A DNA stretch of 21,890 bases, from positions 1-21,890 of the IMG/VR virus record IMGVR_UViG_2531839180_000003, one strand, 5' to 3'. Under the pieces are notes generated by a model. The model was not told the origin of the DNA. It saw nothing but the letters and a program-made list of their open reading frames with translations, and searched no databases. Of this stretch, positions 1 to 19,317 are shown piece after piece. Numbering within the stretch: the first letter of the stretch is position 1; each line of letters begins with the position of its first letter. The position numbers and the translations under genes are program-made. Source of the DNA: a virus. Lineage: Duplodnaviria; Heunggongvirae; Uroviricota; Caudoviricetes.

Positions 1-57
1 TGTGTTGTCCTGCATAGCAATGCGCCGTAATACCTTACACCACGGCGCTGATGGTGA

Positions 58-363
58 TTACTCTGGTTCTTTGGTCTTGCGACGCTGGAGTTCTTCGCGT
101 GCAACGGTGACAAGCTGCCCGATTTCTTCCGCTGCTTTGATGCCGATTTGTTCGACCTTAGCCAGGGCATCCAGTGACGACACAAGGGGATTTTCTCCGC
201 TGCCTTCTGCTTGGCGGCGGGCTATTTCTCCGCGCATGGCGGTTACGATAAATCCGGCATTGCTTTCGCCGTCCAGCTTAACGGATTCCATCCCTTGCAT
301 AACATCTAGTGGGACTCTGACAGTTGTCAGTTGTGATTTTGCGTTTTTGTTAGCCGTTGCCAT
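58..363 (-). CDS. putative ribbon-helix-helix (Arc/CopG-like) transcriptional regulator
   Basis: 101-aa ORF. AGGAG Shine-Dalgarno (revcomp of 372-376) lies 8 nt upstream of the ATG. N-terminal strand-helix pattern LTTVRVPLDVMQGMESV resembles RHH folds. Sits back-to-back with the promoter/operator at 425-462. Family assignment is by eye only. Confidence 0.5.
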   Translation of the reverse strand: MATANKNAKSQLTTVRVPLDVMQGMESVKLDGESNAGFIVTAMRGEIARRQAEGSGENPLVSSLDALAKVEQIGIKAAEEIGQLVTVAREELQRRKTKEPE

Positions 364-424
364 TTCTGAAACTCCTAATCATCGGTGTGTTTCAGTATAC
401 ACAAAAAAAGAAATACAAAAAGCC

Positions 425-462
425 TTGACGTGTGTTTCATGCGCTCATAACATGAAACACAC
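425..462 (+). promoter_or_regulatory. sigma70-like promoter overlapped by a 12-bp perfect inverted repeat (operator candidate)
   Basis: -35 TTGACG at 425-430, 17-nt spacer, -10 TAACAT at 448-453. Inverted repeat GTGTGTTTCATG (430-441) / CATGAAACACAC (451-462) with a 9-bp spacer straddles the -10. Confidence 0.5.
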
Positions 463-560
463 CGAAAGGATTGTTGAAATACAAAGAGCAACGCCCCGCA
501 GTGCCGGAAACACATACGGGGCGTCTAACCACCAACGATAACGAGAGTATCGAGGCAGCT

Positions 561-764
561 ATGAGAAATCATACCATACACCCGCGAGGGCGGGATTCGC
601 ACAACCTGAATAAATTCACCTGGCGTTTTATCGCCCTGAGCGCCGCAAAACCGCGTGTGATTACCATCGTGGCCACCAGTGAACAGGAAGCCCGCCAGCA
701 ATCCCCGGCTGGCTGCGTGATGGTGTTCACCGCCCGTATCCGCAAGGAGGTGCGCCATGCCTGA
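561..764 (+). CDS. hypothetical small protein, first gene of rightward operon; start uncertain
   Basis: In-frame part of track ORF 471..764. ATG at 561 is preceded by GAGG. Stop overlaps the start region of the next gene. No recognisable motif. Confidence 0.3.
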   Translation: MRNHTIHPRGRDSHNLNKFTWRFIALSAAKPRVITIVATSEQEARQQSPAGCVMVFTARIRKEVRHA

Positions 765-1077
765 TATGTCAAATTACCAGTACCTGATTAATCCGCATTT
801 TAACTGTGAGCATGATATTGCTAAAAAGGTTTATTCCGCTGCGGATGGGGCTACTGACAATATATCAATGGCTGTTGCGTCAATTGGTAGCCTGATGTGG
901 CATGCGTCAGAAAATGAGGAATATGACGCAAAGGCCATGCGCATTGATATGGGTAATATCGGTTTGTTACTGGCAATGCTTGGACATTTTGATATTTCGT
1001 TACGGTGCACCATTGAAAATGCCACAGATGCATTAAATGCCATAAAGAAAGCGAATACTGATTCAAATCGGGGATAA
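757..1077 (+). CDS. hypothetical protein
   Basis: 106-aa ORF with a strong GGAGG Shine-Dalgarno at 742-746. Same strand and tight spacing with downstream genes. Confidence 0.55.
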   Translation: MPDMSNYQYLINPHFNCEHDIAKKVYSAADGATDNISMAVASIGSLMWHASENEEYDAKAMRIDMGNIGLLLAMLGHFDISLRCTIENATDALNAIKKANTDSNRG

Positions 1078-1083
1078 ATAATC

Positions 1084-1383
1084 ATGAGAACGTATTTATC
1101 TGGCTTGACTGCCAGCGGTTATGCACATCCCAAAATTATCCCCGGCGCTATTTATCGGGATAAGAACGGCAACAGAGTAACAGTAAAATCGATAATGTTT
1201 GACCGTGTGTACTTTATTCGTGATGGCTATTCATTTCATAGCTCGCTGAACGTGGAGATCTTTATTTGCAGATTCCGGCGGGAAATCCCGCCTTCCAGAA
1301 ATAACCATGTGTCACGTGTGGATGTGGATAAAAAACTACAGGAACTGAAAAACATGATTGCCGCGTGGAGAGAGCAGAAATGA
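1084..1383 (+). CDS. hypothetical protein
   Basis: 99-aa ORF with GGGGA upstream of the ATG. Its 3' end overlaps the start of the helicase gene, suggesting translational coupling. Confidence 0.5.
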   Translation: MRTYLSGLTASGYAHPKIIPGAIYRDKNGNRVTVKSIMFDRVYFIRDGYSFHSSLNVEIFICRFRREIPPSRNNHVSRVDVDKKLQELKNMIAAWREQK

Positions 1384-3197
1384 AAAAAGCGCCAAATTTA
1401 AAACACCAACCGCGTGACAAAATGACGGAAGTCATCATTTTTGCGGGTAGTGATGCGTGGGCACATGCGAAGCAGTGGCAGGAACAGGACGGGCGACTGG
1501 CTGGCGATAACGTGCCACCTGTCTGGCTTGGAGAGCAACAACTTGCCGAACTGGACAACCTGCAAATCGTACCAGACGGACGCTATCGCGTGCGTCTCTA
1601 TCAGGCGGGGTTATTGCGTCCGGGACTTGTTAATACCATCGGGCAGAAACTGGCAGCGGCAGGTGTCAGGGATGCTGATTATTACCCTGAAGGAATGCAC
1701 AGCCAGAAACGGGAGAACTGGCGCGAATATCTGGAGCGTGAGCGGGGAGAGCTGGCGGAAAAGAAAAAGGTAGTTGAACTGCCTGTAAAGAAAAAAGAGC
1801 GGGTAAAAGACGATAACGCTTCATCACTGGCGCTTAACCAGATGGGAGCAAGTCAACGCGGCGAAGTTCTCCTGGCACATTATGGTGGTGAACTGGCGAT
1901 TCATGCTGACTCTGACACTGTTCACCATTACAACGGCGTTGTATGGGAGCCGGTTCAGGATAAAGAGTTACAGCGTGCTATGGCGCAGATTTTCATTGAT
2001 GCGGAGATCAGCTATTCACAGAACGCTATTAAATCAGCGGTCGATACCATGAAGTTAAGTTTGCCTGTAATGGGGAATACAGCCCGTAACTTGATTGGAT
2101 TCAGTAACGGGGTATTTGATACCAGAACAGGTAATTTTCGGGAGCATAACAAAAACGACTGGTTGTTAATTGCCAGTGAATTACCGTTCAGCCCACCAGC
2201 AGAGGGGGAAACGCTGGCAACACATGCGCCGAATTTCTGGAAGTGGTTGCACCGTTCGGTGGCTGAGAATGATCGCAAAGCGGATCGTGTACTGGCGGCA
2301 TTATTCATGGTGCTGGCGAACAGATATGACTGGCAGTTATTCATTGAGGTAACTGGTCCTGGTGGAAGCGGTAAAAGCGTAATGGCGGAGATTTGCACCA
2401 TGCTGGCGGGTAAGGCTAATACAGTATCAGCAAGCATGAAGGCGCTGGAAGATGCAAGGGAACGTGCGTTAGTGGTTGGCTTTTCTCTGATTATCATGCC
2501 GGATATGACCCGCTACGCTGGTGATGGGGCAGGGATTAAGGCCATTACAGGCGGTGACAAGGTGGCAATTGACCCGAAACACAAAGCTCCCTACTCAACG
2601 CGTATTCCGGCAGTAGTGCTGGCGGTTAACAATAACGCCATGTCATTCAGTGACCGCAGCGGGGGGATCTCACGTCGTCGGGTGATATTCAATTTTTCGG
2701 AAGTTGTACCGGAGAACGAACGTGATTCGATGCTGGCGGAAAAAATAGAAGGTGAGCTGGCGGTAGTGATTCGCCATCTGCTTACACGGTTTGCTAACCA
2801 GGACGAAGCCAGACGCCTGTTATATGAGCAGCAGAAATCTGAAGAAGCACTGGCGATAAAGCGAGAGGGGGATTCGCTGGTGGACTTCTGCGGCTATCTC
2901 ATGGCGTCGGTAATGTGTGATGGCCTGTTAGTGGGTAATGCTGAAATTGTGCCATTCAGCCCGCGCAGATATCTCTATCATGCCTATCTGGCTTATATGA
3001 GGGCACATGGGTTTGGTAAACCTGTAACACTGACGCGCTTCGGTAAAGATATGCCGGGGGCAATGGCGGAATATGGCAGGGAGTATATGAAACGGAAAAC
3101 GAAGCACGGTTTGCGTTCAAACGTGACACTGACGGAGGAATCAGAAGACTGGATGCCATCATGTGTATCGGTCACTAATGACGATAGCAAAAATTAA
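1380..3197 (+). CDS. P4 alpha-family replication protein (D5/SF3-type helicase domain with Walker A GPGGSGKS)
   Basis: 605 aa from the ATG at 1380 (GGAGAGAG upstream; track ORF begins at 1365). Walker A TGPGGSGKS and Walker B-like LIIMPDM are followed by the motif layout typical of the phage/plasmid primase P4-family C-terminal region. An N-terminal primase active site cannot be confirmed by eye. The TGTTCACC iteron origin lies immediately downstream. Confidence 0.85.
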   Translation: MKKAPNLKHQPRDKMTEVIIFAGSDAWAHAKQWQEQDGRLAGDNVPPVWLGEQQLAELDNLQIVPDGRYRVRLYQAGLLRPGLVNTIGQKLAAAGVRDADYYPEGMHSQKRENWREYLERERGELAEKKKVVELPVKKKERVKDDNASSLALNQMGASQRGEVLLAHYGGELAIHADSDTVHHYNGVVWEPVQDKELQRAMAQIFIDAEISYSQNAIKSAVDTMKLSLPVMGNTARNLIGFSNGVFDTRTGNFREHNKNDWLLIASELPFSPPAEGETLATHAPNFWKWLHRSVAENDRKADRVLAALFMVLANRYDWQLFIEVTGPGGSGKSVMAEICTMLAGKANTVSASMKALEDARERALVVGFSLIIMPDMTRYAGDGAGIKAITGGDKVAIDPKHKAPYSTRIPAVVLAVNNNAMSFSDRSGGISRRRVIFNFSEVVPENERDSMLAEKIEGELAVVIRHLLTRFANQDEARRLLYEQQKSEEALAIKREGDSLVDFCGYLMASVMCDGLLVGNAEIVPFSPRRYLYHAYLAYMRAHGFGKPVTLTRFGKDMPGAMAEYGREYMKRKTKHGLRSNVTLTEESEDWMPSCVSVTNDDSKN

Positions 3198-3211
3198 ACT
3201 TATGGAATAAC

Positions 3212-3432
3212 TGTTCACCACTGTTCACCCTGTCATAAATATCTTTTATATCAGTATATTATAGGGTGAACAGTTATTTATGAACTGTTCACCAAACTAT
3301 TCACTGTTCACCTTTTTGATTGTTTATTGAGCTTCAAGGGTGAACAGTGGTGAACAGTTGGTGAATAGTTTTTGTGAAACTGTTCACCCCTTAACCTTAT
3401 GAATTAAAAGATAAAATATCAAAAGGTGAACA
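3212..3432. repeat. origin of replication: cluster of TGTTCACC iterons
   Basis: Exact TGTTCACC at 3212-3219, 3222-3229, 3286-3293, 3305-3312, 3381-3388. Exact reverse GGTGAACA at 3265-3272, 3339-3346, 3349-3356, 3425-3432. Degenerate copies at 3297-3304, 3360-3367, 3433-3440. An AT-rich spacer at 3232-3263 separates iteron groups. This octamer is the known binding site of P4 alpha in ori and crr. Confidence 0.8.
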
Positions 3433-3518
3433 GGTGAAGGGTTAAAACGCAAAAATTTTAATTTACTGCTGTGAGATAAAGACTATGACAGTAAAGCACA
3501 CAAAAATACGCGCTTGAT

Positions 3519-3719
3519 TTGACGGAACACTGGTTAAGGGTGTCGATAAAAATCATCGACCGCAACGCCGGGGAAGGATATGCGAAAGCACATCCCGAAC
3601 TGATTAGCGCATTCATGACAACGGCAGCTGCAAACTTTGCCACGCTGACAGAACGGGAGATTGCCGAAGCGGAACAGGTGACAACCATCAACGTTAAAAC
3701 CGGAGAGCAGACAGCATGA
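3519..3719 (+). CDS. hypothetical small protein (non-ATG start, uncertain)
   Basis: 66-aa ORF starting at TTG. Its stop overlaps the ssb start as ATGA, suggesting coupling. No clear Shine-Dalgarno. Confidence 0.35.
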   Translation: MTEHWLRVSIKIIDRNAGEGYAKAHPELISAFMTTAAANFATLTEREIAEAEQVTTINVKTGEQTA

Positions 3720-4141
3720 CAGCACAGATAGCGGCTTACGGGCGGCTGGTGGCTGACCCGCAGTTAAAGACCACCAGCAAGGGTACACAAATGACGATGG
3801 CTAGTATGGCGGTCCCCCTTCCGTGCAGCCAGGCAGATGACGGAACGGCGATGATGTGGTTATCCGTCCTGGCGTTTGGCAGACAGGCCGACGCACTGGC
3901 AAAACACCACAAAGGCGAACTGGTGAGCGTGGCGGGTAACATGCAGGTAAGCCAGTGGACAGGCCAGAACGGCGAAACGCGGCAGGGCTGGCAGGTTATC
4001 GCAGACAGCGTGATCAGTGCGCGAACAGCGCGTCCGGGCGGCAAAAAAGGCCAGCAGGGGCAGGCCACTGACGCACTGAACAGGGCAAAACAGCAGACGG
4101 GTCAGCACGATGATCCGTACGGGGACAACATACCGTTTTAG
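3716..4141 (+). CDS. ssb: single-stranded DNA-binding protein (SSB)
   Basis: 141 aa. OB-fold-like N-terminus (IAAYGRLVADPQL...), Gly/Gln-rich linker and C-terminal ...DDPYGDNIPF resembling the canonical SSB acidic tip DDDIPF. GGAGAG Shine-Dalgarno upstream. Confidence 0.8.
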   Translation: MTAQIAAYGRLVADPQLKTTSKGTQMTMASMAVPLPCSQADDGTAMMWLSVLAFGRQADALAKHHKGELVSVAGNMQVSQWTGQNGETRQGWQVIADSVISARTARPGGKKGQQGQATDALNRAKQQTGQHDDPYGDNIPF

Positions 4142-4163
4142 CGACAACAGAGGGGACATTCCA

Positions 4164-4406
4164 GTGACATTTGAAGAAGTCCAGCAACATAAAAAGTTTC
4201 ATGATTTTGATGATCTGGAAACCATGACAGCAAAAAAATATCGCCGTCTGCTTTCTTCCGATGCGTTGTTTGTTGTGGATCATCATGATTTTCTGCGTAG
4301 CTCACTGACCGGGGAAATTTTCGCAACCAACCGTGAGCAGGTGGAAGCGATGATCGAATATCTGTGGAAAATAAGGCGCAGAATGCGAGATCCCGTGAAA
4401 CGGTAA
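4164..4406 (+). CDS. hypothetical protein (start ambiguous between ATG 4110 and GTG 4164)
   Basis: Track ORF 4110..4406. The ATG at 4110 overlaps ssb by 32 nt. The in-frame GTG at 4164 is preceded by GAGGGGA. Followed by the terminator at 4415-4443. Confidence 0.4.
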   Translation: MTFEEVQQHKKFHDFDDLETMTAKKYRRLLSSDALFVVDHHDFLRSSLTGEIFATNREQVEAMIEYLWKIRRRMRDPVKR

Positions 4407-4414
4407 AATAATAA

Positions 4415-4443
4415 AGGCCTGGTAAAATCCAGGCCATTTTTTT
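4415..4443. terminator. bidirectional rho-independent terminator between convergent genes
   Basis: Stem AGGCCTGG (4415-4422) / CCAGGCCA (4429-4436), loop TAAAAT, then a T-run to 4443. The upstream A-run gives a U-tract on the opposite strand. Confidence 0.7.
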
Positions 4444-4948
4444 ACAGTAAGCCTATTAGGGCACTTGCGCCAGCCCCAACAATGCTGGCAACGGTACTGT
4501 TTTCCAGTAACTGCTTTAATACTGATTTGGCTTGTACATCCCCCGATTTAGCGACTTTTTCAACCAGTTCAGTGATGCTGATGTTTACCAGCATATGGTT
4601 ATGCTCACCTATCTGCACTTGATCACCACTAATTGAACCAATGTTAAATGTATTACTTTTAGTTGGCGTCATATGTTCATTTCCCGTGATATTTTCAATA
4701 TAGAGAGTCAACATATTTGGATGATTGGTTCCCTGTCTGCGGGTTCCATTGGGAAGCAACTTCATATCTATAATTTTTAGATTTATCTCGTTTTTACCGA
4801 CACGCTGGATAATGTGTTGACCAATAGTTACTTCCGGTTCATTTGTATATGGAATTAATACCTTGTTTTCTTTTGCGTTTCTTTTACCTCTGAATGATTC
4901 GCCATTAATTATGAAAGTATCAGGATATACCATTGCGCTTAAATTCAT
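4442..4948 (-). CDS. hypothetical AT-rich protein with short hydrophobic C-terminal tail (accessory gene candidate)
   Basis: 168-aa ORF and the only minus-strand gene inside the 363-11547 plus-strand block. AAAGGA Shine-Dalgarno upstream. Possible -10 TATTAT / -35 TTTACA on the minus strand at 4980-5010. C-terminus STVASIVGAGASALIGLL. No recognisable family. Confidence 0.65.
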   Translation of the reverse strand: MNLSAMVYPDTFIINGESFRGKRNAKENKVLIPYTNEPEVTIGQHIIQRVGKNEINLKIIDMKLLPNGTRRQGTNHPNMLTLYIENITGNEHMTPTKSNTFNIGSISGDQVQIGEHNHMLVNISITELVEKVAKSGDVQAKSVLKQLLENSTVASIVGAGASALIGLL

Positions 4949-5234
4949 GATGCGTCCTTTGTTGTAGTCAGAGACAGCAATAATAGGCCATGGTTTACTT
5001 CTTTTGTAAATTATTTGTTCGTGTTCTTTCGTGGTTGTTCGGTCTGACTGACAGGTGTTTACATACTGATTTTTATGTATATGTTGGAGCGTGGCACTCA
5101 GACGTGAGCCGCCACAATGCCGCCTGACCCCCTGCGCGATGCCGGGTTGATCTGCGAGATGCCGAGAGTGTCGGGCGGCGCTCCCCCCGTGTTGGTTTCA
5201 CGTCCTGAATCTTAACCAATACGAGAAAACCTTC

Positions 5235-6404
5235 ATGAAGAAATTAATCGAACTCCGCCAGCAAAAAAACGCCCTGAAAAACCAGATGCGATCCCTGCTG
5301 GAAAAAGCCGACAGTGAAAACCGTAGTCTGAACGCTGAAGAAGGCAAACAGTTTGATGAACTGCGTGCAAAAGCTGATGCCCTCGACACAGAAATTTCCC
5401 GCCTCGAGTCTGTGGCTGATGAAGAACGCAGCAAGCCAGGAACGGGCATCCAGAAATTATCATCTGATGAATTGCGTAACTACATCGTAACCGGAGATGT
5501 GCGATCACTGTCCACCAGCACTGACAGCGGCAGGGATGGCGGATATACCGTAATTCCTGAGCTTGATCGCGAAGTCATGCGCCAGCTACAGGATGACAGT
5601 GTTATGCGCGTGATCGCGACCGTGAAGACCGCAAAATCAAATGAGTTTCAGAAACTGGTTTCCACTGGCGGCGCAACTGTAGGACGAGGCACAGAAGGCA
5701 GCGCACGCAGTGAAACCAACACCCCGAAAATTGAACGCGTAACCATCAAGTTGAATCCGATCTACGCCTACCCGAAAACCACGCAGGAAATCCTGGATTT
5801 TTCAGAGGTGGATATTCTGGGCTGGTTATCCTCCGAAATTGCCGACACGTTCGCCAGCACCGAAGAGGATGATTTTGTTAATGGCGACGGTAACGGCAAG
5901 CCGAAAGGCTTCATGGCTTACACCCGTGCGGCGACCAGTGACAAAACCCGCGCTTTTGGCACCATTGAAAAAATAGTAGCGGCAAGTGGAACCGCCATTA
6001 CAGCGGACGAACTGATCGACATTCTCTACAAGCTGAAAGCGAAATACCGCAAAAATGCCGTCTGGGTGATGAACTCGGGCACGGCAGGGACACTACAGAA
6101 GCTGAAAAATGAGAACGGCGATTATATCTGGCGCGACAGCCTTAAAGAAGGTGCGCCGGATATGTTGCTTGGTCGTCCTGTTTACTGCCTGGAGTCCATG
6201 CCGGACATCGGCGCAGGAAAAGCACCGCTAGCGGTTGGCGATTTCAGTCGTGGTTATTTCATCGTTGATCATGTAACAGGGATTCGCACCCGACCGGACA
6301 ACATTACTGAACCCGGATTCTACAAGGTCCACACGGATAAATATCTGGGCGGTGGTGTGGTGGATTCAAACGCCATCAAAATTCTGGAAATGAAAGCTGG
6401 CTAG
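5235..6404 (+). CDS. HK97-family major capsid protein with N-terminal coiled-coil delta domain
   Basis: 389 aa. Coiled-coil N-terminus (LRQQKNALKNQMRSLLEKA...), then capsid body with the NGDGNGKPKG motif matching HK97 gp5 NGDGTG and a conserved C-terminal region. Confidence 0.9.
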   Translation: MKKLIELRQQKNALKNQMRSLLEKADSENRSLNAEEGKQFDELRAKADALDTEISRLESVADEERSKPGTGIQKLSSDELRNYIVTGDVRSLSTSTDSGRDGGYTVIPELDREVMRQLQDDSVMRVIATVKTAKSNEFQKLVSTGGATVGRGTEGSARSETNTPKIERVTIKLNPIYAYPKTTQEILDFSEVDILGWLSSEIADTFASTEEDDFVNGDGNGKPKGFMAYTRAATSDKTRAFGTIEKIVAASGTAITADELIDILYKLKAKYRKNAVWVMNSGTAGTLQKLKNENGDYIWRDSLKEGAPDMLLGRPVYCLESMPDIGAGKAPLAVGDFSRGYFIVDHVTGIRTRPDNITEPGFYKVHTDKYLGGGVVDSNAIKILEMKAG

Positions 6405-6416
6405 TCATGAGTAAGG

Positions 6417-6438
6417 AGGAGGCTGCGGCCTCCTTTTT
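6417..6438 (+). terminator. intrinsic terminator or attenuator immediately after the major capsid gene
   Basis: Stem AGGAGGC (6417-6423) / GCCTCCT (6428-6434), loop TGCG, then TTTT (6435-6438), 13 nt after the capsid stop codon. Confidence 0.55.
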
Positions 6439-6458
6439 CAGCTTTATGGAGTACACCG

Positions 6459-7019
6459 ATGAAAAACACCGATTTTGAAATCCGCACATCTGAACTGACC
6501 GCCAGCAATAAAAAGCTGGTGGGGTATGCCGTTCGCTGGAACAGCCTTTCAGAAATTATCTGGGACGAATTCCGCGAACAGTTCACGCCGGGGGCTTTTG
6601 CTGACTATCTGGCGACGGGTAATGATGTGCGCTGCCTGTATGAGCATGACTATACCCAACTGCTGGGGCGCACCAAATCCGGCACTCTGGTACTGACTGA
6701 GGATAACACCGGGTTACGTTTTGAACTGACACCGCCGGATACCCAGCTTGGAAAAGATGTGCTTACGCTGGTGGAGCGTGGCGACATTACAGGAATGAGC
6801 TTTGGTTTTCGCGCATTATGCGAGGAGTGGAGTATCGCGCAAAAACCGTATCTGCGTACCGTAACCGCCGCTGAACTCCGTGAAATCACAATAACGTCGA
6901 TGCCTGCTTATCCAGAATCTGGCGTGGAGATTGCCCACCGTTCGTTGTTTGCACAGCACCCTGAATTACGTCCGACAGGAAATAATCGTCATCGCTGGTC
7001 TGAGCTGGCGGGGTTGTGA
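6459..7019 (+). CDS. HK97-family prohead protease
   Basis: 186 aa with GGAG Shine-Dalgarno. Motifs such as GMSFGF and the overall pattern fit the prohead serine protease (S78) family. Position is adjacent to capsid and portal. Confidence 0.8.
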   Translation: MKNTDFEIRTSELTASNKKLVGYAVRWNSLSEIIWDEFREQFTPGAFADYLATGNDVRCLYEHDYTQLLGRTKSGTLVLTEDNTGLRFELTPPDTQLGKDVLTLVERGDITGMSFGFRALCEEWSIAQKPYLRTVTAAELREITITSMPAYPESGVEIAHRSLFAQHPELRPTGNNRHRWSELAGL

Positions 7020-7020
7020 T

Positions 7021-8235
7021 ATGTGGTGGCCTTTTAGTCGTAAAAAAAGCGAGCAGCGTAACCTGTCCATTGATGATTTTCTGGCGCTGTCCGGCGTACC
7101 GAATACCGGATCCGGAGAATATGTTTCTGCTGGGACGGCTGAATCATTGCCTGCAGTGATGAATGCGGTTTCTGTCATCGCTGAGGCGGTGGCCACGATG
7201 CCGTGTTATCTGTATCTGGTACGTAATGACAAGGGCAGGGAGGCGCGGGAATGGCTGGACAGTCACCCGGTAGATATTCTGCTGAATGAGCAGCCTAATT
7301 CGTGCCAGACACCTTACCAGTTTAAACGCACAATGATGCGTCACTGCCTGCTGAACGGTAACGCCTATGCGGTTATTGAGTGGGGGCAGGACGGGCAGCC
7401 AAAATCACTTCATCCTTATGCGCCGAGGTGTGTTGTACCGGAACGCACAGGCGCACACAAATACCGCTATACCATCACCGAACCCTGTACAGGAACGGTG
7501 CGCACGTATTTACAGGAAGAAGTTTTGCATCTCCGCTATGCCTCGGATGATGGCTTTCTGGGGCGTTCCCCCGTCACGATTTGCCGTGAGGCGCTGGGGC
7601 TTGGCCTTGCTCAACAGCGTCACGGAGCCAGCATTATGAAAGATGGCATGATGGCGGCAGGGATTATCACGTCAGGCGAATGGCTGGACGGCGTGAAAGG
7701 TAAACAGGCATTGGATGCTCTGGAACGCTACAAGGGGGCGAAAAATGCCGGAAAAACGCCAATCCTTGAAGGGGGCATGGATTACAGGCAACTGGGAATG
7801 AGTAACCAGGATGCGGAATGGCTGGCCTCCCGTCGCTTCTCCATTGAAGACATCGCCCGCATGTTCAACGTATCGCCTATTTTTCTGCAGGAATACAGCA
7901 ACAGCACCTACAGCAATTTCAGCGAGGCAAGCCGCGCGTTTCTGACCATGACAATGCGCCCGTGGCTGGCGAACTTCGAACAGCAAATCAAGGCCGCTTT
8001 GCTGGTGGCTTCTCCCGTACCTGGTACCCGTTATCTGGTTGAGTTTGATTCAGCCGATTTATTACGCGCCACACCCACCGAACGTTATGCCACGTATGAG
8101 AAAGGGATTAAGAACGGGATCATGAATCCGAACGAAGCCCGTGAGCGTGAGGGTATGCCGCCGCGTGAAGGTGGTGATGAGTTCAGCCAGGCATGGAAAC
8201 AGACTGTGGAAATTAAAGGGAGAAAAGATGAGTGA
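7021..8235 (+). CDS. HK97-family portal protein
   Basis: 404 aa from the ATG at 7021, directly after the protease stop (track ORF extends to 6931). Portal-like C-terminal region ...NPNEAREREGMPP. Confidence 0.85.
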   Translation: MWWPFSRKKSEQRNLSIDDFLALSGVPNTGSGEYVSAGTAESLPAVMNAVSVIAEAVATMPCYLYLVRNDKGREAREWLDSHPVDILLNEQPNSCQTPYQFKRTMMRHCLLNGNAYAVIEWGQDGQPKSLHPYAPRCVVPERTGAHKYRYTITEPCTGTVRTYLQEEVLHLRYASDDGFLGRSPVTICREALGLGLAQQRHGASIMKDGMMAAGIITSGEWLDGVKGKQALDALERYKGAKNAGKTPILEGGMDYRQLGMSNQDAEWLASRRFSIEDIARMFNVSPIFLQEYSNSTYSNFSEASRAFLTMTMRPWLANFEQQIKAALLVASPVPGTRYLVEFDSADLLRATPTERYATYEKGIKNGIMNPNEAREREGMPPREGGDEFSQAWKQTVEIKGRKDE

Positions 8236-8530
8236 AGCCAGAATTACACCTGATGAAGTCAGGGCACATCTTCGACTTGATGATGATTTATCCGGTGAAG
8301 GCGAACTTCTGAAAATGTATACCGATGCGGCGCTGGAAGCCTGCCAGAAGCATATCGGGAAACGTTTTGAAGACGGGCTGGAATTTACCCCGGCAATGCG
8401 TGTTGGTTGCCTGATGTACATCGCTTTCCTGTACGAGAACCGGGAAGCGGTTTCACCAGTGGAGCACTCGGAACTGCCTATGGCTATTTCTGCGCTCTGG
8501 TCAGTTTATCGTGACGTAGGGGTGTACTGA
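8228..8530 (+). CDS. gp6-like head-tail connector (head completion) protein
   Basis: 100 aa from the ATG at 8228, overlapping the portal stop as ATGAGTGA, with AGGGAG Shine-Dalgarno. Pattern RAHLRLDDD...AALEA...FLYENRE is typical of phage gp6-like connectors. Confidence 0.7.
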   Translation: MSEARITPDEVRAHLRLDDDLSGEGELLKMYTDAALEACQKHIGKRFEDGLEFTPAMRVGCLMYIAFLYENREAVSPVEHSELPMAISALWSVYRDVGVY

Positions 8531-8970
8531 TGCCGTGGCAACCATTAAGGCGATGCACTGAGCCTGGCTGTAATAAGCGCGTGAAGTCCGGCAAGTGTGA
8601 AGAGCACAGGCGGGCTGCATGGCGTGCAGAGGATGCCAGACGGGGACACCGCCGCGCGCGCGGGTATTCCCGACAGTGGGACAAATACCGCGCCCTGTAC
8701 CTGAGCAAAAACCCGTTATGCGTGCGTTGTCTGGCTAAGGGGATTTATACGCCAGCTCTTGTGGTGGATCACATCATTCCCATCAATGGCGGCGGTGATG
8801 TTCTCTTCTGGCCTGAGTGGAATCACCAGGCATTGTGCCAGACGTGCCACAACCGTAAGACGACACGAGAAGATCCAGCCACGAAAGCAAACCGTAAAGC
8901 GGGCATGTATCGCGAGCAGGAAGAACGGGCGGCACACCGTAACGACTGGATGTATGGCGATGATGACTGA
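8530..8970 (+). CDS. phage-associated HNH endonuclease
   Basis: 146 aa. Cys pairs (CTEPGC, CVRC, CQTCHNRK) and VDHIIP...N...H fit an HNH zinc-binding nuclease. Start overlaps the connector stop as TGATG. Lies upstream of terS as in HK97-type cos phages. Confidence 0.85.
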   Translation: MPWQPLRRCTEPGCNKRVKSGKCEEHRRAAWRAEDARRGHRRARGYSRQWDKYRALYLSKNPLCVRCLAKGIYTPALVVDHIIPINGGGDVLFWPEWNHQALCQTCHNRKTTREDPATKANRKAGMYREQEERAAHRNDWMYGDDD

Positions 8971-9258
8971 ACAGGAGCAAACCAGGCTGATACGTGGACT
9001 GATAAGGCAGCGTGACACATGGAAGACACAGGAGACAGAGCACAAAGCCAACAGGACTGGGCGCACAAAACGCACCACAGCGAAGCGATTAACCGACCGT
9101 GACCGCGAGGTCATGGAATGTTTTCGCAATCGCTGGTGAGGCCGTCAGAGGGGGTGGGGGTGGTTTTCAGGACGAAACCGTCCCTGCCGGACACCGACCG
9201 CCCCCTCAAATTTTTGTGCACGGTAATTTTTTTGAAAATAATTGGGCGAAAAAAGAAC

Positions 9259-9615
9259 ATGGCAAGACCACCAAAAGCCCCCGCTTACCTGGATGAAATC
9301 GCGGTCAGGCAGTGGAAGGAAAAATCGCGCCAGCTTTCCGGGCGGGAAGACCTTACCCCCGCCGACTGGAGCAATCTGGAACTGTATTGCGTTAACTACT
9401 CTATATACCGCAAAGCCGTCGAAGACCTTGCGACGCGCGGGTTCAGCATTGTTAACAGTCAGGGCAGCGAGAGCAGAAACCCCGCACTGAGCGCAAAGGC
9501 TGACGCAGAAAGAATAATGATCAAAATGGCTTCTTTGCTGGGTTTTGACCCGGTAAGCCGTCGCAGAAATCCACCGGAAACAGAGGAAGAGGACGAACTT
9601 GACCGCCTGGCATGA
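9259..9615 (+). CDS. terS: terminase small subunit (P27-family-like)
   Basis: 118 aa from the ATG at 9259; the track ORF from 9118 has a low-complexity N-terminal extension that is probably non-coding. MARPPKAP...LDE...W...LELYC pattern and position directly upstream of terL. Confidence 0.7.
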   Translation: MARPPKAPAYLDEIAVRQWKEKSRQLSGREDLTPADWSNLELYCVNYSIYRKAVEDLATRGFSIVNSQGSESRNPALSAKADAERIMIKMASLLGFDPVSRRRNPPETEEEDELDRLA

Positions 9616-11260
9616 GTACGCAGAAGGCGTAAAAAACGGCAAAATTACGGCCTGTAAACGACTGAAACAGGCTGTTAAACGGTATTTTTCTGACCTTGAA
9701 AACTCCCTTTACACGTTCGATCCGGAGGTCGTGGAGCGGTTTATTGCCTTTTCCCGGGTGTGCCCGCACGTAAAAGGCGCAATGCGCGGTAGCCCCATTG
9801 AACTTGAGCCGTGGCAGCAGTTCGCCTTTGCCTGCATCCTGGGATTTAAGGTTAAGGCCACCGGACGGCGCAAATACACCAGCGCATTCATTGAAGTACC
9901 GCGAAAAAATGCCAAATCCACGGTCGCCGCTATCCTGGCTAACTGGTTTCTGGTTATGGAAAACGGGCAGCAGGATATTTACACCGCCGCCGTGAGTCGT
10001 GATCAGGCGCGGATCGTGTTTGATGATGCGCGTCAGATGTGCCTTTTATCCCGACCGTTACGAAAGCGGGTAAATATTCAGGCGCACAAGGTGATACACC
10101 CGAAAACCAACAGCCTGTTAAAGCCACTGGCAGCAAAAGCGGCAACCATTGAGGGGACAAACCCGAGTCTTGCCATTGTGGATGAATATCACCTGCACCC
10201 AGACAACGGGGTTTATTCCGCACTTGAACTGGGGATGGGGGCGCGTCCGGAGGGGCTGTTATTTGCCATCACCACATCGGGGAGCAACGTTGTTTCAGCC
10301 TGTAAACAACACTACGACTATTGCTGCCAGATACTGGATGGTGAAGAGGTGAACGAATCCATGTTCGTACTGATTTACGAGCTGGATGATGAAAGCGAGG
10401 TTGACGATCCGGCGATGTGGATAAAGGCGAATCCCAATATCGATGTTTCCGTCGATCGTGAAAAACTGGCCTCAACCATCCAGAAAGCGCGGGGTATTCC
10501 GTCGCAGTGGGTGGAAATGCTCACCAAGCGATTCAATATCTGGTGTCAGGGGGCTACGCCGTGGATGGGTAACGGTGCATGGGCGGAGTGCGCCGGAACG
10601 TTCGCTGAGGCGGATTTATACGGGCAGGAGTGCTATGCGGGGCTGGACTTATCATCAACCAGCGATATTTCCAGCGTGTGCTATGCCTTTCCGGTCGGTA
10701 AAAAGATTATGCTGGTTTCACGTCACTATCTACCGGAATTTCAGCTACAGAACCCTGCCAATAAAAACCGCGCCATCTATCGCCAGTGGGCAAAGGCGGG
10801 CTGGATACGCACAACACCGGGTGACTGCATTGATTATGACCGTATCCGTGATGACATCATGGCGGATGCAGAGAATTTCAATATCAGGCTGGTGGGTTTC
10901 GATACATGGAACGCCACGCACCTGAGGACGCAGCTACAGGGAGCGGGATTTGAGGTGGAGCCGTTCCCGCAAACGTACCTTCGTTTTAGTCCGGCGGCGA
11001 AATCGTTCGAAGTTTTTGTTAACCGGAAGGTGATTGTTCATCGTGGTGATCCGGTGCTGGCCTGGTCAATGAGTAATGTTGTGATGCAGAGTGACGCGAA
11101 CGCCAATATCAAGCCGAACAAGAAAAAATCATCCAATAAGATAGACCCGAGCGTTGCGGCGCTGATGGCGTTTGGCACATTCCAGGCTGAGCATGAGGAA
11201 TTTGCATTTGATATGAGCGACAGCCAGAAAGAGCGACTTGCGGCATTTGATGGGGTATGA
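9599..11260 (+). CDS. terL: terminase large subunit
   Basis: 553 aa from a TTG start at 9599, preceded by GAGGAAGAGGA, overlapping terS by 17 nt. ATPase N-terminal domain and nuclease C-terminal domain pattern typical of Terminase_1-type large subunits. Confidence 0.9.
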   Translation: MTAWHEYAEGVKNGKITACKRLKQAVKRYFSDLENSLYTFDPEVVERFIAFSRVCPHVKGAMRGSPIELEPWQQFAFACILGFKVKATGRRKYTSAFIEVPRKNAKSTVAAILANWFLVMENGQQDIYTAAVSRDQARIVFDDARQMCLLSRPLRKRVNIQAHKVIHPKTNSLLKPLAAKAATIEGTNPSLAIVDEYHLHPDNGVYSALELGMGARPEGLLFAITTSGSNVVSACKQHYDYCCQILDGEEVNESMFVLIYELDDESEVDDPAMWIKANPNIDVSVDREKLASTIQKARGIPSQWVEMLTKRFNIWCQGATPWMGNGAWAECAGTFAEADLYGQECYAGLDLSSTSDISSVCYAFPVGKKIMLVSRHYLPEFQLQNPANKNRAIYRQWAKAGWIRTTPGDCIDYDRIRDDIMADAENFNIRLVGFDTWNATHLRTQLQGAGFEVEPFPQTYLRFSPAAKSFEVFVNRKVIVHRGDPVLAWSMSNVVMQSDANANIKPNKKKSSNKIDPSVAALMAFGTFQAEHEEFAFDMSDSQKERLAAFDGV

Positions 11261-11265
11261 CGAGA

Positions 11266-11547
11266 ATGACTGAAACTGATCTACTAAAAATAATTCGCCG
11301 CATTACCGGAATCAGTCAGCAGCCTGACGAACAGGCTACACAGCCGGACAGCGTGATAGCCGAAAATTACGCGCGTGTGGTGGCTGAGGTAATGCGCCGT
11401 GACGGTATTGAGCTTAACGGCGTGGATATGCGCAACATACGAACCAGAGTTCTTGAGTTGCTGGCATACCGTCGCCGTTCTCAACAACGGAGGGAGAGCG
11501 CGAAAAATACTTACCAGTGGAGGAAGCCGGAGCACTTACGGCGGTAA
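11266..11547 (+). CDS. hypothetical protein
   Basis: 93 aa from the second in-frame ATG just after the terL stop. No recognisable motif. Confidence 0.4.
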   Translation: MTETDLLKIIRRITGISQQPDEQATQPDSVIAENYARVVAEVMRRDGIELNGVDMRNIRTRVLELLAYRRRSQQRRESAKNTYQWRKPEHLRR

Positions 11548-11564
11548 CTGGTTGATATTACCGA

Positions 11565-11773
11565 AAGTGCAAAAATGCACTTAGCAACTGGTGGCGAGTT
11601 GCAGATCTGCAACTCGACTATGAAACTACCCGTAGTTTGGGTAGTAAGAGTAACACCCAGATTTTGGGGCTTACTCGCGATACCCAAATAAAGGGTATCG
11701 GTGTAAGAAATATCGTTTCTCATATGTGAGCACCGAGGGCGGAATTCCGCCTTCGGTTACTTATTGTGCTCAT
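11565..11773. repeat. array of five inverted repeats including a 22-bp perfect palindrome
   Basis: Hairpin AAGTGCA/TGCACTT (11565-11582). Perfect palindrome CGAGTTGCAGATCTGCAACTCG (11595-11616). CTACCC/GGGTAG (11627-11644). CGATACCC/GGGTATCG (11678-11700). Nested hairpin 11726-11773 with core CCGAGGGCGG-AATT-CCGCCTTCGG (11733-11756). Confidence 0.6.
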
Positions 11774-12152
11774 GCACAGGGAGGGGCGGGTCAAATCTCT
11801 GTACCCTGACGTCTTCCGGACTGCCAGCCCCATCGATTTTTTATACCCGCGAAAAATGAAAAACGCTTCACGCTGGTGGGCCTGATGCCGATATGGTGAG
11901 CCACATACCGGAAATATCCACCAGCACGGCAACGGCAGAATAGCCACAACACAGAAAACCCACGAATATGGGGTTTTTGTTATGGCATGGTCATGATGAC
12001 CGCCCCTGCTCTGAATGGTGGAAATCACCACGCAGATCATCCACCAGCTTCATGACGGATAGCCGGAAAATGATAACGGTTACGCAAAACCCCCAGCAAA
12101 TTTCCCTTTTGTTTGTTATTGTTCGTCGTTGTTCGTAGAGCTTCAACGAAAT

Positions 12153-12176
12153 GTGTGGTCAGTTGTGTGGTCAGTT
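12153..12176. repeat. tandem direct repeat TGTGTGGTCAGT x2 upstream of int
   Basis: Exact 12-mer at 12153-12164 and 12165-12176. Also GTTCGT x2 at 12121-12136. Located 190-250 bp upstream of the integrase start. Confidence 0.6.
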
Positions 12177-12368
12177 TTGAGGCTTTTAATTTATGCATTC
12201 TTAAAAACTTATTTATTATCAATTACTAACAGGAATTAGTAAGAAATACCCGTATTACCTGATCTGGATAATGCCAGCGTAGTCCTGGCGATTATTCAAG
12301 ATAAAATCAAAGACTTATCTGCGATTTTCGAACCGTTTTGTTTAGCCGATCACATCGAGGCTCACAAA

Positions 12369-13727
12369 ATGGGACACCAGACCATACGCCACACCATTAA
12401 ACGTAACGGGGTTTATTACGTTCGTTTCCGCCTGCCTGATAATAAGTTTTTCCGTAAGTCGTTAGAGACTGACAGCCACACCCAGGCGCAGTTGCTCATG
12501 TCTTTTGCTTCTCCTGTAATTCCTCTGGTTCAACGTGGAGCTATCCAACCGGATCACTTCGGTAAGCGTCTTTCTGAGTATGGCAATAGTCTGAAGCAGC
12601 AGAATGAACAATGGCTGGCGCACCAATTTCTGAATGATGCGCGGCGCAATATTCAGCCGATAGTTGTTCATGAAGACCGCGAGGTTGTCTCTCCTTCGGT
12701 AGATGAGGAAGAACAAACTGAAGCACAACCAGAACACGTGTTAACACTGGCTGGCGCGTGGAATATGTATAAAGAGGAGAAAGCCCAAAACTGGACGAAG
12801 GCTATCTCTCAAGCCAATGAGCGCTTTATGGAGGTGATGTTGATTGTCTTGGGTTCATCAACTGATGTAACCACGATTACCAAGCAAGACATTAAACAGG
12901 TAATGGAGGTTGTTGAAAACTTGCCTAAGCGTGTTGTGCAGCCTTATCGGTCAATGACGGTTCAGCAACTGATCGAGTGTGATGATGTTCCGCCAGAAGA
13001 TTTGGTTGGCGCTGAGTCTATCCACAAGCATTTGAAGATTTACAAATCGCTGTTTAAAACCTTCCTGACAGACAATAAAGATATTCTGGAGAAGTCTCCG
13101 ACTGATGGGATCGTCGCCGCACCGTCGAAAACGAGGTTTGGAGCATACAGTGCAGCAGAAATGAGAAAGTTTGTGGGGTGGGCGCTCAGGCAGCCTGACG
13201 GTTGGCAGAAGTGGATCACTCTTTTGTTGGCGTACACGGGAGCCAGAAGAGGCGAGATCGCAAAGCTGGAAAAATCTCATATCAAATATGATGAGGATAG
13301 TCAGCGGCACTATCTCCTTATCGCGGAAGGAGGACAGGGGAAAACTGAGAACGCGACTAGACAGGTTGTAATACATCCCAAACTGATCGAATGGGGATTC
13401 CTTGATTTTGTAAACCGCCAATGGAAAGAGAAAATATTCTCGCCTGTGTCGGGTAAGAACATGCCGAAGATCGGCAAAGTTTTAGCAGATGTGCGTGATC
13501 AGCTTGGTATTCCTTATCTTGATGACTATGGGCAGCGGCGATTGGTGCATAGCTTCCGACATACCATGATTTCAACCTGTTTAGCTGGCTGGGTTGGCAA
13601 CTTAGCGCACTTGCAGCAGGTTGTAGGGCATGAGAAAAGCGGGGCAGGGATCACTAGAAGATACTTACACATTTTTCCTCTGAAAACTGTGTGTTACGTC
13701 ATTGATGGATTGTGTTGGAATGGCTAA
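12369..13727 (+). CDS. int: tyrosine recombinase (phage integrase family)
   Basis: 452 aa with GAGG Shine-Dalgarno. Catalytic signature elements TGARRGE (Arg I), HSFRHT (HxxR box II) and GHEKSGAGITRRYLH (His...Tyr). Confidence 0.85.
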   Translation: MGHQTIRHTIKRNGVYYVRFRLPDNKFFRKSLETDSHTQAQLLMSFASPVIPLVQRGAIQPDHFGKRLSEYGNSLKQQNEQWLAHQFLNDARRNIQPIVVHEDREVVSPSVDEEEQTEAQPEHVLTLAGAWNMYKEEKAQNWTKAISQANERFMEVMLIVLGSSTDVTTITKQDIKQVMEVVENLPKRVVQPYRSMTVQQLIECDDVPPEDLVGAESIHKHLKIYKSLFKTFLTDNKDILEKSPTDGIVAAPSKTRFGAYSAAEMRKFVGWALRQPDGWQKWITLLLAYTGARRGEIAKLEKSHIKYDEDSQRHYLLIAEGGQGKTENATRQVVIHPKLIEWGFLDFVNRQWKEKIFSPVSGKNMPKIGKVLADVRDQLGIPYLDDYGQRRLVHSFRHTMISTCLAGWVGNLAHLQQVVGHEKSGAGITRRYLHIFPLKTVCYVIDGLCWNG

Positions 13728-13837
13728 TAATTTGGGTGATGTCATAGTTTTACTGAATTTTCAGTGATATAAATCATGTAAAAATAAGGTGTTCTACGTA
13801 AGGCTATTTTTCTATACACAGCTAGCATAAAGGATTA

Positions 13838-15286
13838 ATGATGTTTATTAAAAAACTGAAGATAGAAAATTTTAAAGGGTATCACGGGGAAGATAATGAG
13901 TTGGAATTCAATATCCCTGATGGAGAAACGGAAGGTAGTGGACTTAATATATTTGTGGGTGAAAACAACGCCGGAAAATCCACTGTATTTGAAATTATAG
14001 ATTTTATAAAGGATGGAACCAAAAAGAACATTGAGGATCTTATATGCAAATCAGACCCGGCTAATATTGCTGAGAAGCTTTCAGCCGAGCTAACCTTCAC
14101 TGGAAACTTATCAGAAGTAATTGCCGCTCATGTACAAGCTAATAAAGTTGCAGCATTCACCTCGCATGTTTTTGAGGACGAGGGTGTTAATTATTTCAGA
14201 GTGAAGAGGTGTAGTGAGGTAGGGGAGAAGAAAATATTATTTTGGAACGGAAATGAATTTGTTAACCCAAGTGGTATAGATGCCCCATTTAAGAAGTTTT
14301 ATGATAATAACTTCATTTGGGCTGATACAAACCCAAGCAATGAAGCAAAGTTTGGCTCTACAACTATATGTGGTTCGCTTCTAAAAGAAATTGCTTTAGG
14401 CCATATTGAAACGGATGAGTATAGAGCGTTTTCTGAGCAATATCATCGCGTATTCAATCATCCTGAATCTGAGTTGAGACAAAAAATATCATTAGTCGAA
14501 GATCAAGTTAGAACAGTTTTTTCATCTCAATTTGGCATGGCAGATATTTCTTTCATTTTTGAGGAGTTGCAGGTAGAGAATTTCTTCAAAACTATTTCCA
14601 TCATGATTGATGATGGGGTGAATGTCCCAATGGGCGAAAAGGGGCATGGAATGCAAAGGGCACTAGCCCTATCATTACTTCAGGTGTATGCTGACATAAC
14701 GTGTAATGCGCATGGCGCTGGGATTAGCAAACCATTTTATCTTTTCATTGATGAACCTGAAATATGTCTTCATCCATCAGGCCAGCAGAAGCTTTTAGAA
14801 GCTTTAATGATTATCTCCAAAAGCAGACAGGTTTTTGTCACAACGCATTCGCCTTTCCTTTTATCTTCCCCTTATCTTAAAAATGTTGGCTTGTTTGTTT
14901 TCAAAAAAGAAAATAATAAGAATGTTGTGGAGAGAGCTGATACTTCTCCATGGTTCCCTTGGTCTCCATCGTGGGGGGAGATTAATTTCAAAGCATACAA
15001 TTTAGCAACCGTTGAATTGCATAATGAATTATATGGTTATTTGCAGGAAAAAAACTCCTGTCCGAGCGAAAAAGCAATGGAACAATGGCTAAATTCAAAT
15101 GGAATTGCATTTGATAAAGTATGGGTTAGAGAATTTAAAGGTGCAGCACAACCGCCAGCGGATACTACATTACAAACATTCATCCGTAATCACATACACC
15201 ACCCAGAGAATGTTACAATGCAATCTAATCGCTATACACAACAAGAATTACTAACTTCAATCCAACAAATGGTTGGTCTTCTATAA
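13838..15286 (+). CDS. ABC-type ATPase of the OLD/AAA_15-like class with unassigned ~140-aa C-terminal domain
   Basis: 482 aa. N-terminus KKLKIENFKGY, Walker A GENNAGKST, signature-like GHGMQRALALSL, Walker B/D-loop LFIDEPEICLHP, H-loop VTTHSP. No Toprim-like acidic motifs seen in the C-terminus, which contains RNHIHH (about residues 450-455). Visibly AT-rich. Own upstream intergenic region and own terminator. Confidence 0.8.
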   Translation: MMFIKKLKIENFKGYHGEDNELEFNIPDGETEGSGLNIFVGENNAGKSTVFEIIDFIKDGTKKNIEDLICKSDPANIAEKLSAELTFTGNLSEVIAAHVQANKVAAFTSHVFEDEGVNYFRVKRCSEVGEKKILFWNGNEFVNPSGIDAPFKKFYDNNFIWADTNPSNEAKFGSTTICGSLLKEIALGHIETDEYRAFSEQYHRVFNHPESELRQKISLVEDQVRTVFSSQFGMADISFIFEELQVENFFKTISIMIDDGVNVPMGEKGHGMQRALALSLLQVYADITCNAHGAGISKPFYLFIDEPEICLHPSGQQKLLEALMIISKSRQVFVTTHSPFLLSSPYLKNVGLFVFKKENNKNVVERADTSPWFPWSPSWGEINFKAYNLATVELHNELYGYLQEKNSCPSEKAMEQWLNSNGIAFDKVWVREFKGAAQPPADTTLQTFIRNHIHHPENVTMQSNRYTQQELLTSIQQMVGLL

Positions 15287-15291
15287 AGAAA

Positions 15292-15320
15292 AAGGCGAGC
15301 CCTTTGGCTCGCCTTTTAAT
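15292..15320. terminator. bidirectional rho-independent terminator between convergent genes
   Basis: Stem AAGGCGAGCC (15292-15301) / GGCTCGCCTT (15306-15315), loop CTTT, then TTTTAAT. The upstream A-run gives a U-tract for the minus strand. Confidence 0.75.
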
Positions 15321-15321
15321 A

Positions 15322-15513
15322 TTAATTTAATAACTTGCGCTTTTTAGATAATAGCACACTTAAAGCATATTCAAACCCGTGTTGCGCCTCTAGACGGCAT
15401 AGGGTGATATTACAGATCCCCAACTCCTTACACAGCGCCTTTCGGTTAATTACCTCCGCCGCGCCAGATACATAGACTTGACCAGCGCCGGGGATATTGA
15501 TTGAAACTTTCAT
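15322..15513 (-). CDS. hypothetical small protein, possibly a truncated head-module gene
   Basis: 63-aa ORF with GAGGT Shine-Dalgarno. Lies directly downstream of the E-like capsid gene and abuts the terminator and the AT-rich int/ATPase segment. Confidence 0.4.
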   Translation of the reverse strand: MKVSINIPGAGQVYVSGAAEVINRKALCKELGICNITLCRLEAQHGFEYALSVLLSKKRKLLN

Positions 15514-15603
15514 GTGTTACCTCAGTGTAAAAGTAAAAATGAATATAACCGGAAGATATAACCCCCAGCCGTACCGGAAGGGCGCGACCGGGGGAAATGT
15601 GCA

Positions 15604-16632: not shown

Positions 16633-16634
16633 TA

Positions 16635-18300: not shown

Positions 18301-18346
18301 CAGGGGGGTGTGTCAGAATGACACAGGGGTGTGTCAAAATGGCACA
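18301..18346. repeat. tandem pair of dyad-symmetric sites (operator or iteron candidate)
   Basis: CAGGGGGGTGTGTCAGAATGACAC (18301-18324) and CAGGGGTGTGTCAAAATGGCACAC (18325-18346). Each contains GTGTCA-N3-TGACAC-like dyad symmetry. Flanking direct repeat ATAAGACTAA at 18349-18358 and 18374-18383. Confidence 0.55.
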
Positions 18347-18790: not shown

Positions 18791-18864
18791 AGATACCGTG
18801 ATGAGGTGGGTGGTTTGATATAAAAATCCCCATCATAATATAACGCACCTAACCGGAGAATGCA

Positions 18865-19290: not shown

Positions 19291-19317
19291 TCAGTAACTT
19301 AATTTGGGAGGGTAACA

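Follow-up and report, generated by a model that had tools for sequence, protein, structure and literature searches.

[quoted passage not shown] The window (the whole stretch of 21,890 nucleotides that was analyzed) contains a short gene to which a first-pass annotation had assigned such a role, on the grounds that the SSB is satellite encoded and that its tip reads YGDNIPF rather than the canonical DDDIPF. This alteration, it proposed, could redirect replication factors of the host or of a helper.

The ssb gene, as given by the list of open reading frames and the sequence itself, occupies positions 3716 to 4141 on the plus strand (stop codon counted in), with an ATG start codon at 3716 and a TAG stop codon at 4139 to 4141. 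It encodes a protein of 141 amino acids, and the translation ends in ...GQHDDPYGDNIPF. Pfam family PF00436 matched residues 5 to 99 (E = 1.8e-15; 57.3 bits, with the cut-off at 26), the NCBIfam model TIGR00621 scored 59.5 bits, above its curated cut-off of 53.95, and PHROG 44 (SSB) matched at 8e-38. The identical gene in RefSeq is named single-stranded DNA-binding protein (WP_000126652.1). We also generated an AlphaFold2 monomer model with an alignment of 58 homologues. Its mean pLDDT was 85.5, with residues 1 to 100 at 93 to 97 and a low-confidence tail, and its secondary structure comprised strands at residues 3 to 11, 16 to 19, 25 to 36, 44 to 54, 69 to 82, and 88 to 100 and a helix at residues 55 to 62. 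When the model was compared to the PDB using Foldseek, the 50 matches listed were all bacterial SSBs, and the best of them included the SSBs of S. aureus, B. subtilis, and M. tuberculosis (probability 1.00; target TM-score of ~0.8). The model and these matches place an OB-fold single-stranded DNA (ssDNA)-binding domain at residues 1 to 103 (3716 to 4024, plus strand). By family profiles and predicted OB fold, the product is a genuine bacterial-type SSB, and the first-pass annotation was correct in placing one here, a point on which Pfam, TIGR00621, PHROG, AlphaFold2, and Foldseek agree.

The satellite SSB and the E. coli chromosomal SSB (P0AGE0 family) belong to the same Pfam/TIGRFAM family and share a single OB fold, a disordered linker, and an Ile-Pro-Phe end. 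Their OB domains, however, are only 25% identical, and the linker is about 28 residues long in the satellite protein compared to about 57 in the host protein. W48, F54, and W81 of the satellite SSB align with W54, F60, and W88 of E. coli SSB, and neither a tryptophan nor any other aromatic residue aligns with W40; we take these four E. coli residues to be the aromatic residues that stack on or contact ssDNA. In addition, host His55, which is presumably a tetramer-interface residue, aligns with Leu49 of the satellite protein. The satellite linker (residues 104 to 131; 4025 to 4108, plus strand) contains an RPGG[KR][KR] stretch and possibly a helix at residues 115 to 127. Its pLDDT was 55 to 68, and residues 118 to 130 are missing or substituted in some close homologues. 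The motif SARTxRPGG[KR][KR] at the border between OB domain and linker (residues 103 to 111; 4022 to 4048) is conserved, and R106 and P107 are near invariant across the wider clade, in relatives down to ~30% identity.

The surrounding genes indicate what kind of element carries this SSB. Positions 1 to 12282 of the window match an island in the genome of E. coli O114:H49 90-9280 (NZ_CP024240) with 100% identity. From its integrase to its last gene, that island measures 14.2 kb (13914 to 28148 of our extracted locus) and lies between rcnR and thiM; a tyrosine recombinase and an HTH regulator are encoded just upstream of window position 1, outside the window. By Pfam, the order of modules is DUF4222, a D5/P4-type primase-helicase, the ssb region, an HK97-type capsid protein, an S78 protease, a portal protein, a connector, an HNH protein, TerS, and TerL (matches to Phage_capsid, Peptidase_S78, Phage_portal, Phage_connect_1, HNH, Terminase_4, and the TerL ATPase and nuclease). 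No tail, lysis, or holin gene is annotated in the O114:H49 island. Capsid-forming PICIs (cf-PICIs) have been defined by capsid modules of their own, a lack of tail and lysis genes, and a size of 10 to 18 kb (PMC10085698; bioRxiv 2025.02.11.637232). Judged by its gene layout, the element is a capsid-forming PICI. It shares the defining modules, from pri-rep/ori to TerL, and the size of ~14 kb with the cf-PICI prototype EcCIEDL933. The description of the SSB as satellite encoded is thus borne out by the cf-PICI layout, the integrase at the left end, and the lack of tail and lysis genes.

A second, unrelated island abuts the cf-PICI and fills the remainder of the window (12283 to 21890). It contains an integrase-like gene (12369 to 13727), a gene for an OLD/AriA-like AAA_15 ATPase (13838 to 15286; PADLOC Old, 1.5e-45), a minus-strand gene whose relatives are annotated as "major capsid protein" (15604 to 16632), and genes for HTH proteins (20044 to 21344). 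The best genome match to this half of the window had 74% coverage and 94% identity, and among 5,426 complete E. coli genomes there was no instance of the two islands joined as in the window.

Within the cf-PICI, ssb is embedded among replication genes. The D5/P4-type primase-helicase (Pri-Rep) is encoded on the plus strand at 1380 to 3197 and matched Pfam D5_N, DUF5906, and Pox_D5 as well as PHROG 864 (DNA primase; 2e-191). RefSeq names it "DNA primase family protein" and starts it at 1380; the longest open reading frame begins with a GTG at 1365. It is followed at 3210 to 3434 by 10 copies, in both orientations, of the 10-bp iteron ACTGTTCACC, which has 12 matches in the whole window against 1.3 expected. 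An iteron origin downstream of pri-rep is the replicon layout of E. coli PICIs (PMC6092414), and the cluster is presumably the replication origin of the island. Next comes orf66 (3519 to 3719, plus strand; 66 amino acids; phrog_1231), which lacks a Pfam match and whose stop codon overlaps the ssb start codon (ATGA). This gene is found upstream of ssb in most related loci, and its product is a candidate partner of the SSB. Downstream of ssb lies orf82 (4158 to 4406, plus strand; 82 amino acids; phrog_1957), the final gene of the replication operon, and the operon ends at a bidirectional terminator-like hairpin (4416 to 4435) recognized by consensus match only. The hairpin separates the operon from a convergent minus-strand open reading frame of 168 amino acids (4442 to 4948; phrog_5789), which is located between the replication and capsid modules and had no Pfam or PADLOC match. 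The order is therefore primase-helicase, ten iterons, orf66, ssb, orf82, and terminator, and this layout, together with the ATGA overlap, indicates that ssb is part of the replication operon. The association extends beyond this island: among 28 related loci, drawn from ~25 Enterobacterales species, ssb lies 3' of a primase-helicase homologue in 25, with at most five and mostly zero to two open reading frames between them.

We then compared the tip of the satellite SSB to that of the host protein. Direct reading of the sequence gives the tip as DDPYGDNIPF (residues 132 to 141; 4109 to 4138, plus strand), of which YGDNIPF spans 4118 to 4138, and the protein ends in HDDPYGDNIPF. The residues and their codons are D132 (GAT), D133 (GAT), P134 (CCG), Y135 (TAC), G136 (GGG), D137 (GAC), N138 (AAC), I139 (ATA), P140 (CCG), and F141 (TTT). 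The tip is thus indeed YGDNIPF and not DDDIPF, as had been reported. The host SSB of MG1655 ends in MDFDDDIPF, so that, counted from the C terminus, Asp is replaced in the satellite tip by Asn at −4 and by Gly at −6, and Phe is replaced by Tyr at −7. Both tips have Phe at −1, Pro at −2, Ile at −3, Asp at −5, and an aromatic residue at −7 (Y135 in the satellite SSB), and the satellite tip has extra Asp residues at −9 and −10. The IPF anchor (I139, P140, and F141) is therefore present, whereas the acidic triplet at −6 to −4 is reduced to its middle Asp (G136, D137, and N138). Within the last nine residues, the satellite protein has two acidic side chains and the host protein has four.

To see which tip positions are constrained, we examined 106 full-length close homologues, which had been prefiltered to those ending in F. 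D137 and F141 were invariant in all 106, although for F141 this follows in part from the prefiltering. I139 was kept in 101 and P140 in 103, and residue 135 was Y, F, or W in every homologue. Position 138 (−4), by contrast, was N in 52, D in 21, and G in 20 and was also found as E and S, so that no tip column was more variable and only one column of the whole protein was; position 136 (−6) was G in 87, E in 9, and S in 6. Within this family, then, alignment identifies −4 and −6, at both of which the tip differs from that of the host, as the weakly constrained positions. The 50 distinct alleles point the same way at the nucleotide level. Synonymous codons were found at the Tyr, Gly, Asp, Ile, and Pro of the tip (TAC/TAT, GGG/GGC, GAT/GAC, ATA/ATC, and CCG/CCA/CCC), F141 was encoded by the single codon TTT, and position −4 had six codons encoding three amino acids. 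Because these residues are conserved while their codons vary synonymously, the skeleton aromatic-x-Asp-x-Ile-Pro-Phe appears to be under purifying selection.

This skeleton reaches well beyond close relatives. A query consisting only of the OB domain, run against 1.84 billion cluster representatives, returned 4,609 matches, and a recognizable tip was present in 66 of the 119 representatives of at least 115 amino acids that we examined. These 66 had Asp at −5 in 62 cases, Phe at −1 in 59, and Phe at −7 in 42, and position −4 was again mixed (E in 20, P in 15, D in 12, A in 9, and G in 4). Only 4 ended in DDD[IL]PF, and the other 62 were noncanonical. The motif [FY]-[DN]-D-x-[ILV]-P-F was still present in relatives of just 35 to 50% identity, and IQF, ILF, and truncated variants occurred occasionally in the family. 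Across Enterobacterales, the endings of the satellite-type lineage include IPF, ISF, APF, TPF, PPF, DDF, and PEF. The exact GDN combination is, in these alignments, specific to this E. coli SSB family. A same-family SSB in an E. coli O157:H7 island (Z1769; 9001 to 9411 of that locus) has the tip PYGDDISF, and its ISF end represents the same Pro-to-Ser change as that found in the tip of ssb-113, a defective allele of the host ssb gene.

Whether such departures from the canonical tip are unusual was assessed with a sample of 8 phage genes, 4 plasmid genes, one published case, and the 66 cluster representatives. EcSSB-like proteins of enterobacterial phages ended in DFDDDIPF in 6 of 7 cases and in GFDEDIPF in the remaining one; by comparison of MG1655 with these phages, the host tip is invariant among the host-type sequences sampled, with GFDEDIPF as the one exception. 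The 6 canonical tips suggest that SSBs of host lineage retain the canonical tip. The four plasmid SSBs, also of host lineage, ended in YGFSDDIPF (E. coli IncF), PPMDDEAPF (Klebsiella IncF), DFEDDIPF (an IncY phage-plasmid), and DFDDDIPF. Tips in relatives of the satellite SSB from other Enterobacterales were DDETPF, DDEAPF, YDDDF, HEDDF, DDQIPF, DDLPPF, and NDEPEF. Judging from these sequences, then, whether a noncanonical tip is unusual for a mobile element in enterobacteria depends on the SSB lineage. The first-pass annotation had allowed that the variant might be common among ordinary phage SSBs. Noncanonical tips did prove common in IncF plasmids, in phage HK620, and in 62 of the 66 distant relatives, but the host-type phage SSBs were canonical in 6 of 7 cases. 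Because noncanonical tips are frequent in mobile-element SSBs, the satellite tip is, as far as frequency is concerned, largely unexceptional.

The plasmid and phage cases differ from the satellite SSB in other respects. The SSBs of IncF plasmids ("SSF" type) are likewise accessory proteins borne by mobile elements in the same hosts, and their tips, too, differ from the host motif, in their case at position −6, −4, or −3. They are host-like, however, with 75 to 88% OB-domain identity to E. coli SSB, whereas the satellite SSB forms a separate lineage. Their genes adjoin DUF905 genes, a position that we take to be the plasmid leading region, whereas satellite ssb sits in the pri-rep/ori operon. 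The SSB of the temperate coliphage HK620 is a distant homologue with a noncanonical tip that also ends in Pro-Phe (NDYPPF) and that is required for binding to its partner Sak4 (PMC5928155). There is no such Ile in the HK620 tip, which serves a recombinase encoded nearby, whereas the satellite tip is much nearer the host motif, and neither Pfam scans nor RefSeq annotation revealed a recombinase gene in the satellite island. One ending, DDEAPF, is found both in the host-like SSB of the Klebsiella IncF plasmid (L173) and in satellite-type SSBs from Buttiauxella, Shimwellia, Atlantibacter, Enterobacter, and one assembly labeled Chryseobacterium (L099, L101, L102, L104, L108, L110, and L116), which could reflect convergence or an exchange of tails between unrelated lineages.

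Published work on SSB C-terminal (SSB-Ct) docking indicates what the conserved skeleton would do. The terminal Phe sits in a hydrophobic pocket of the partner protein, its carboxylate is held by a basic lip, and Asp residues contact a basic ridge (PMC3159472, PMC10164576). Crystals resolve IPF or DIPF alone, and the upstream DFDD adds about tenfold affinity; Asp −4 lies within the DIPF segment resolved on ExoI, and a salt bridge between it and RecO R203 has been proposed from molecular dynamics (PMC10143822). All of the anchors named in this literature are kept in the satellite tip, namely, Phe with its carboxylate, Pro −2, and Ile −3, and so are the upstream aromatic residue and at least one Asp. 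Because the full anchor and part of the acidic patch are kept, continued, possibly weaker docking on host proteins is expected. With two fewer acidic side chains, the affinity of the satellite tip for host partners is probably somewhat lower than that of the host tip. Also, since Asp −4 contacts ExoI and, by simulation, RecO, a shift among host partners is possible, and Asn at −4 could alter selectivity among them rather than merely lower affinity.

We consider it likely that the protein is an ordinary accessory replication SSB, which coats ssDNA and whose tip docks generically on host proteins. It looks ordinary because the anchors are kept and its differences fall at freely variable positions. 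Upon induction, the primase-helicase of the island would open the iteron origin (3210 to 3434), and SSB made from the same operon, in translational coupling to orf66, would coat the exposed single strands and supplement a host SSB pool that may be limiting during the burst of satellite and helper replication. The tip would still dock in standard SSB-Ct pockets, such as those of the chi subunit of Pol III, DnaG, and PriA. Asn −4 and Gly −6 are accordingly best read from the alignments as, most likely, tolerated variation at weakly constrained positions and not as a retargeting device.

To test the alternative of a tip matched to the replication protein of the island, we compared the upstream replication protein to the SSB tip in 80 IMG/VR loci. 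SSBs with the same tip and 96 to 100% identity were found behind three unrelated classes of replication protein: a D5-type primase-helicase, an AAA_25 RepA-like helicase, and a DUF927 protein. In one locus (L004), SSB, capsid protein, and TerL are 100% identical to those of the window, and an AAA_25 helicase replaces the D5 primase. SSBs of 96 to 98% identity follow DUF927 proteins or D5 primases that are just 48% identical, and in the O157:H7 island the family SSB comes after a RepA-family (AAA_25) helicase, not a D5 primase. The tip thus stays constant while the replication protein is swapped among three unrelated classes, which argues that it is not tuned to that protein; we rejected tuning to a specific replication protein on the basis of these identical tips. 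From these comparisons, the order of replication protein, origin, and ssb is conserved although its parts can be exchanged, and this SSB lineage recombines freely with replication initiators of three unrelated classes. Among near-identical cf-PICIs, the replication initiator behaves as a swappable cassette.

The broader proposal that the tip is tuned to some satellite- or helper-encoded partner, recruited over host factors, has precedents in the HK620 SSB-Sak4 pair and in T7 gp2.5, which binds its own helicase-primase and polymerase. It would account for the tight linkage of ssb to a replication protein in 25 of 28 loci, for the translational coupling to the conserved orf66, and for the great diversity of tips across genera in the lineage, and SSBs of mobile elements have been predicted to bind cognate polymerases via variable C-terminal tails. 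By analogy, the HK620 tip NDYPPF, which binds a phage-specific recombinase, also counts against the reading of the satellite protein as an ordinary SSB. Nevertheless, we regard this proposal as unlikely. The pairing of one tip with D5-type, AAA_25, and DUF927 proteins makes a satellite-specific partner unlikely, the variable positions of nearly identical islands differ by single steps (among N, D, G, and E), the conserved part is exactly the generic SSB-Ct anchor, and the island lacks a recombinase gene such as the one that HK620 SSB serves. Thus, a redirection of host or helper factors by the altered tip did not find support, given the anchors that are kept, the variability of the changed positions, and the recurrence of the same tip with three classes of replication protein. 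A related idea, which we rate as improbable, is that the plasticity of the tip is itself selected, with different tips dialing in subsets of the ~20 host SSB-interacting proteins or evading defenses that sense the tip, and with GDN as one tuned state. Such a tip might, for example, still bind chi and DnaG for replication but no longer ExoI, RecQ, and RecO, by which satellite DNA could be degraded or processed. Also counting against the reading as an ordinary SSB are the canonical tips of the phage SSBs of host lineage and the tips that lack Ile-Pro in relatives from other genera (DDEAPF, YDDDF, and NDEPEF), which are hard to reconcile with strict docking on host pockets that do not vary. If tip variation were shown to change host recruitment, the natural variants would represent a ready-made panel for SSB-Ct selectivity.

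A further possibility is that the tip has become unimportant, with the SSB serving only as extra coating for ssDNA and the tip decaying under relaxed selection. The free variation of position −4 and of the linker, the occasional IQF, ILF, and truncated variants, and the ISF end of the O157:H7 protein, which matches the ssb-113 change, are consistent with decay. We find it quite improbable, however, since D137, I139, P140, and the aromatic residue at 135 are conserved despite synonymous codon variation, F141 is invariant, and [FY]-[DN]-D-x-[ILV]-P-F survives at 35 to 50% identity. Drift would also have erased the disordered tail of ten residues, which is still present. Least probable in our estimation, and very unlikely in absolute terms, is a role mainly in conflict, in which the SSB withholds host factors from the helper or acts as a decoy or trigger for defenses that sense SSB. 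Satellites often interfere with their helpers, and a weaker acidic tip could make the protein a poor recruiter that blocks ssDNA. The sequence, however, contains no specific pointer to such a role, ssb lies in the replication operon rather than in an accessory hotspot, and the cf-PICI prototype reportedly affects the fitness of its helper only negligibly. PADLOC gave no match for the SSB or its neighbors, and a defense role of the SSB was rejected on that basis.

The preferred reading, an ordinary accessory SSB, fits with the accessory SSBs already known from plasmids and phages and in that sense matters little for the tip itself; two side results, on the lineage and on its exchange of replication initiators, may be of use in satellite research. 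The ssb family matched 1,815 of 5,426 complete E. coli genomes (about a third), and in 1,083 the match covered at least 80% of the gene; there were up to six copies per genome, nearly always chromosomal. No record in the phage collection exceeded 35% identity to the satellite SSB, indicating that sequenced coliphages do not share this lineage. A plasmid origin of the satellite SSB was rejected, as only 45 plasmid records matched and few did so closely. PICI and cf-PICI papers searched by term, including PMC6092414 and PMC10085698, did not mention an SSB, and a library search returned it in unrelated contexts only. Because the gene is named in RefSeq yet absent from the PICI papers searched, it appears to be annotated but undiscussed. 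Collectively, these data suggest that a distinct SSB lineage, present in ~25 Enterobacterales species, occurs frequently in the replication modules of PICIs and cf-PICIs but has gone unremarked there. The SSB is not among the core markers of cf-PICIs and is also found in PICI-like islands that lack a capsid module.
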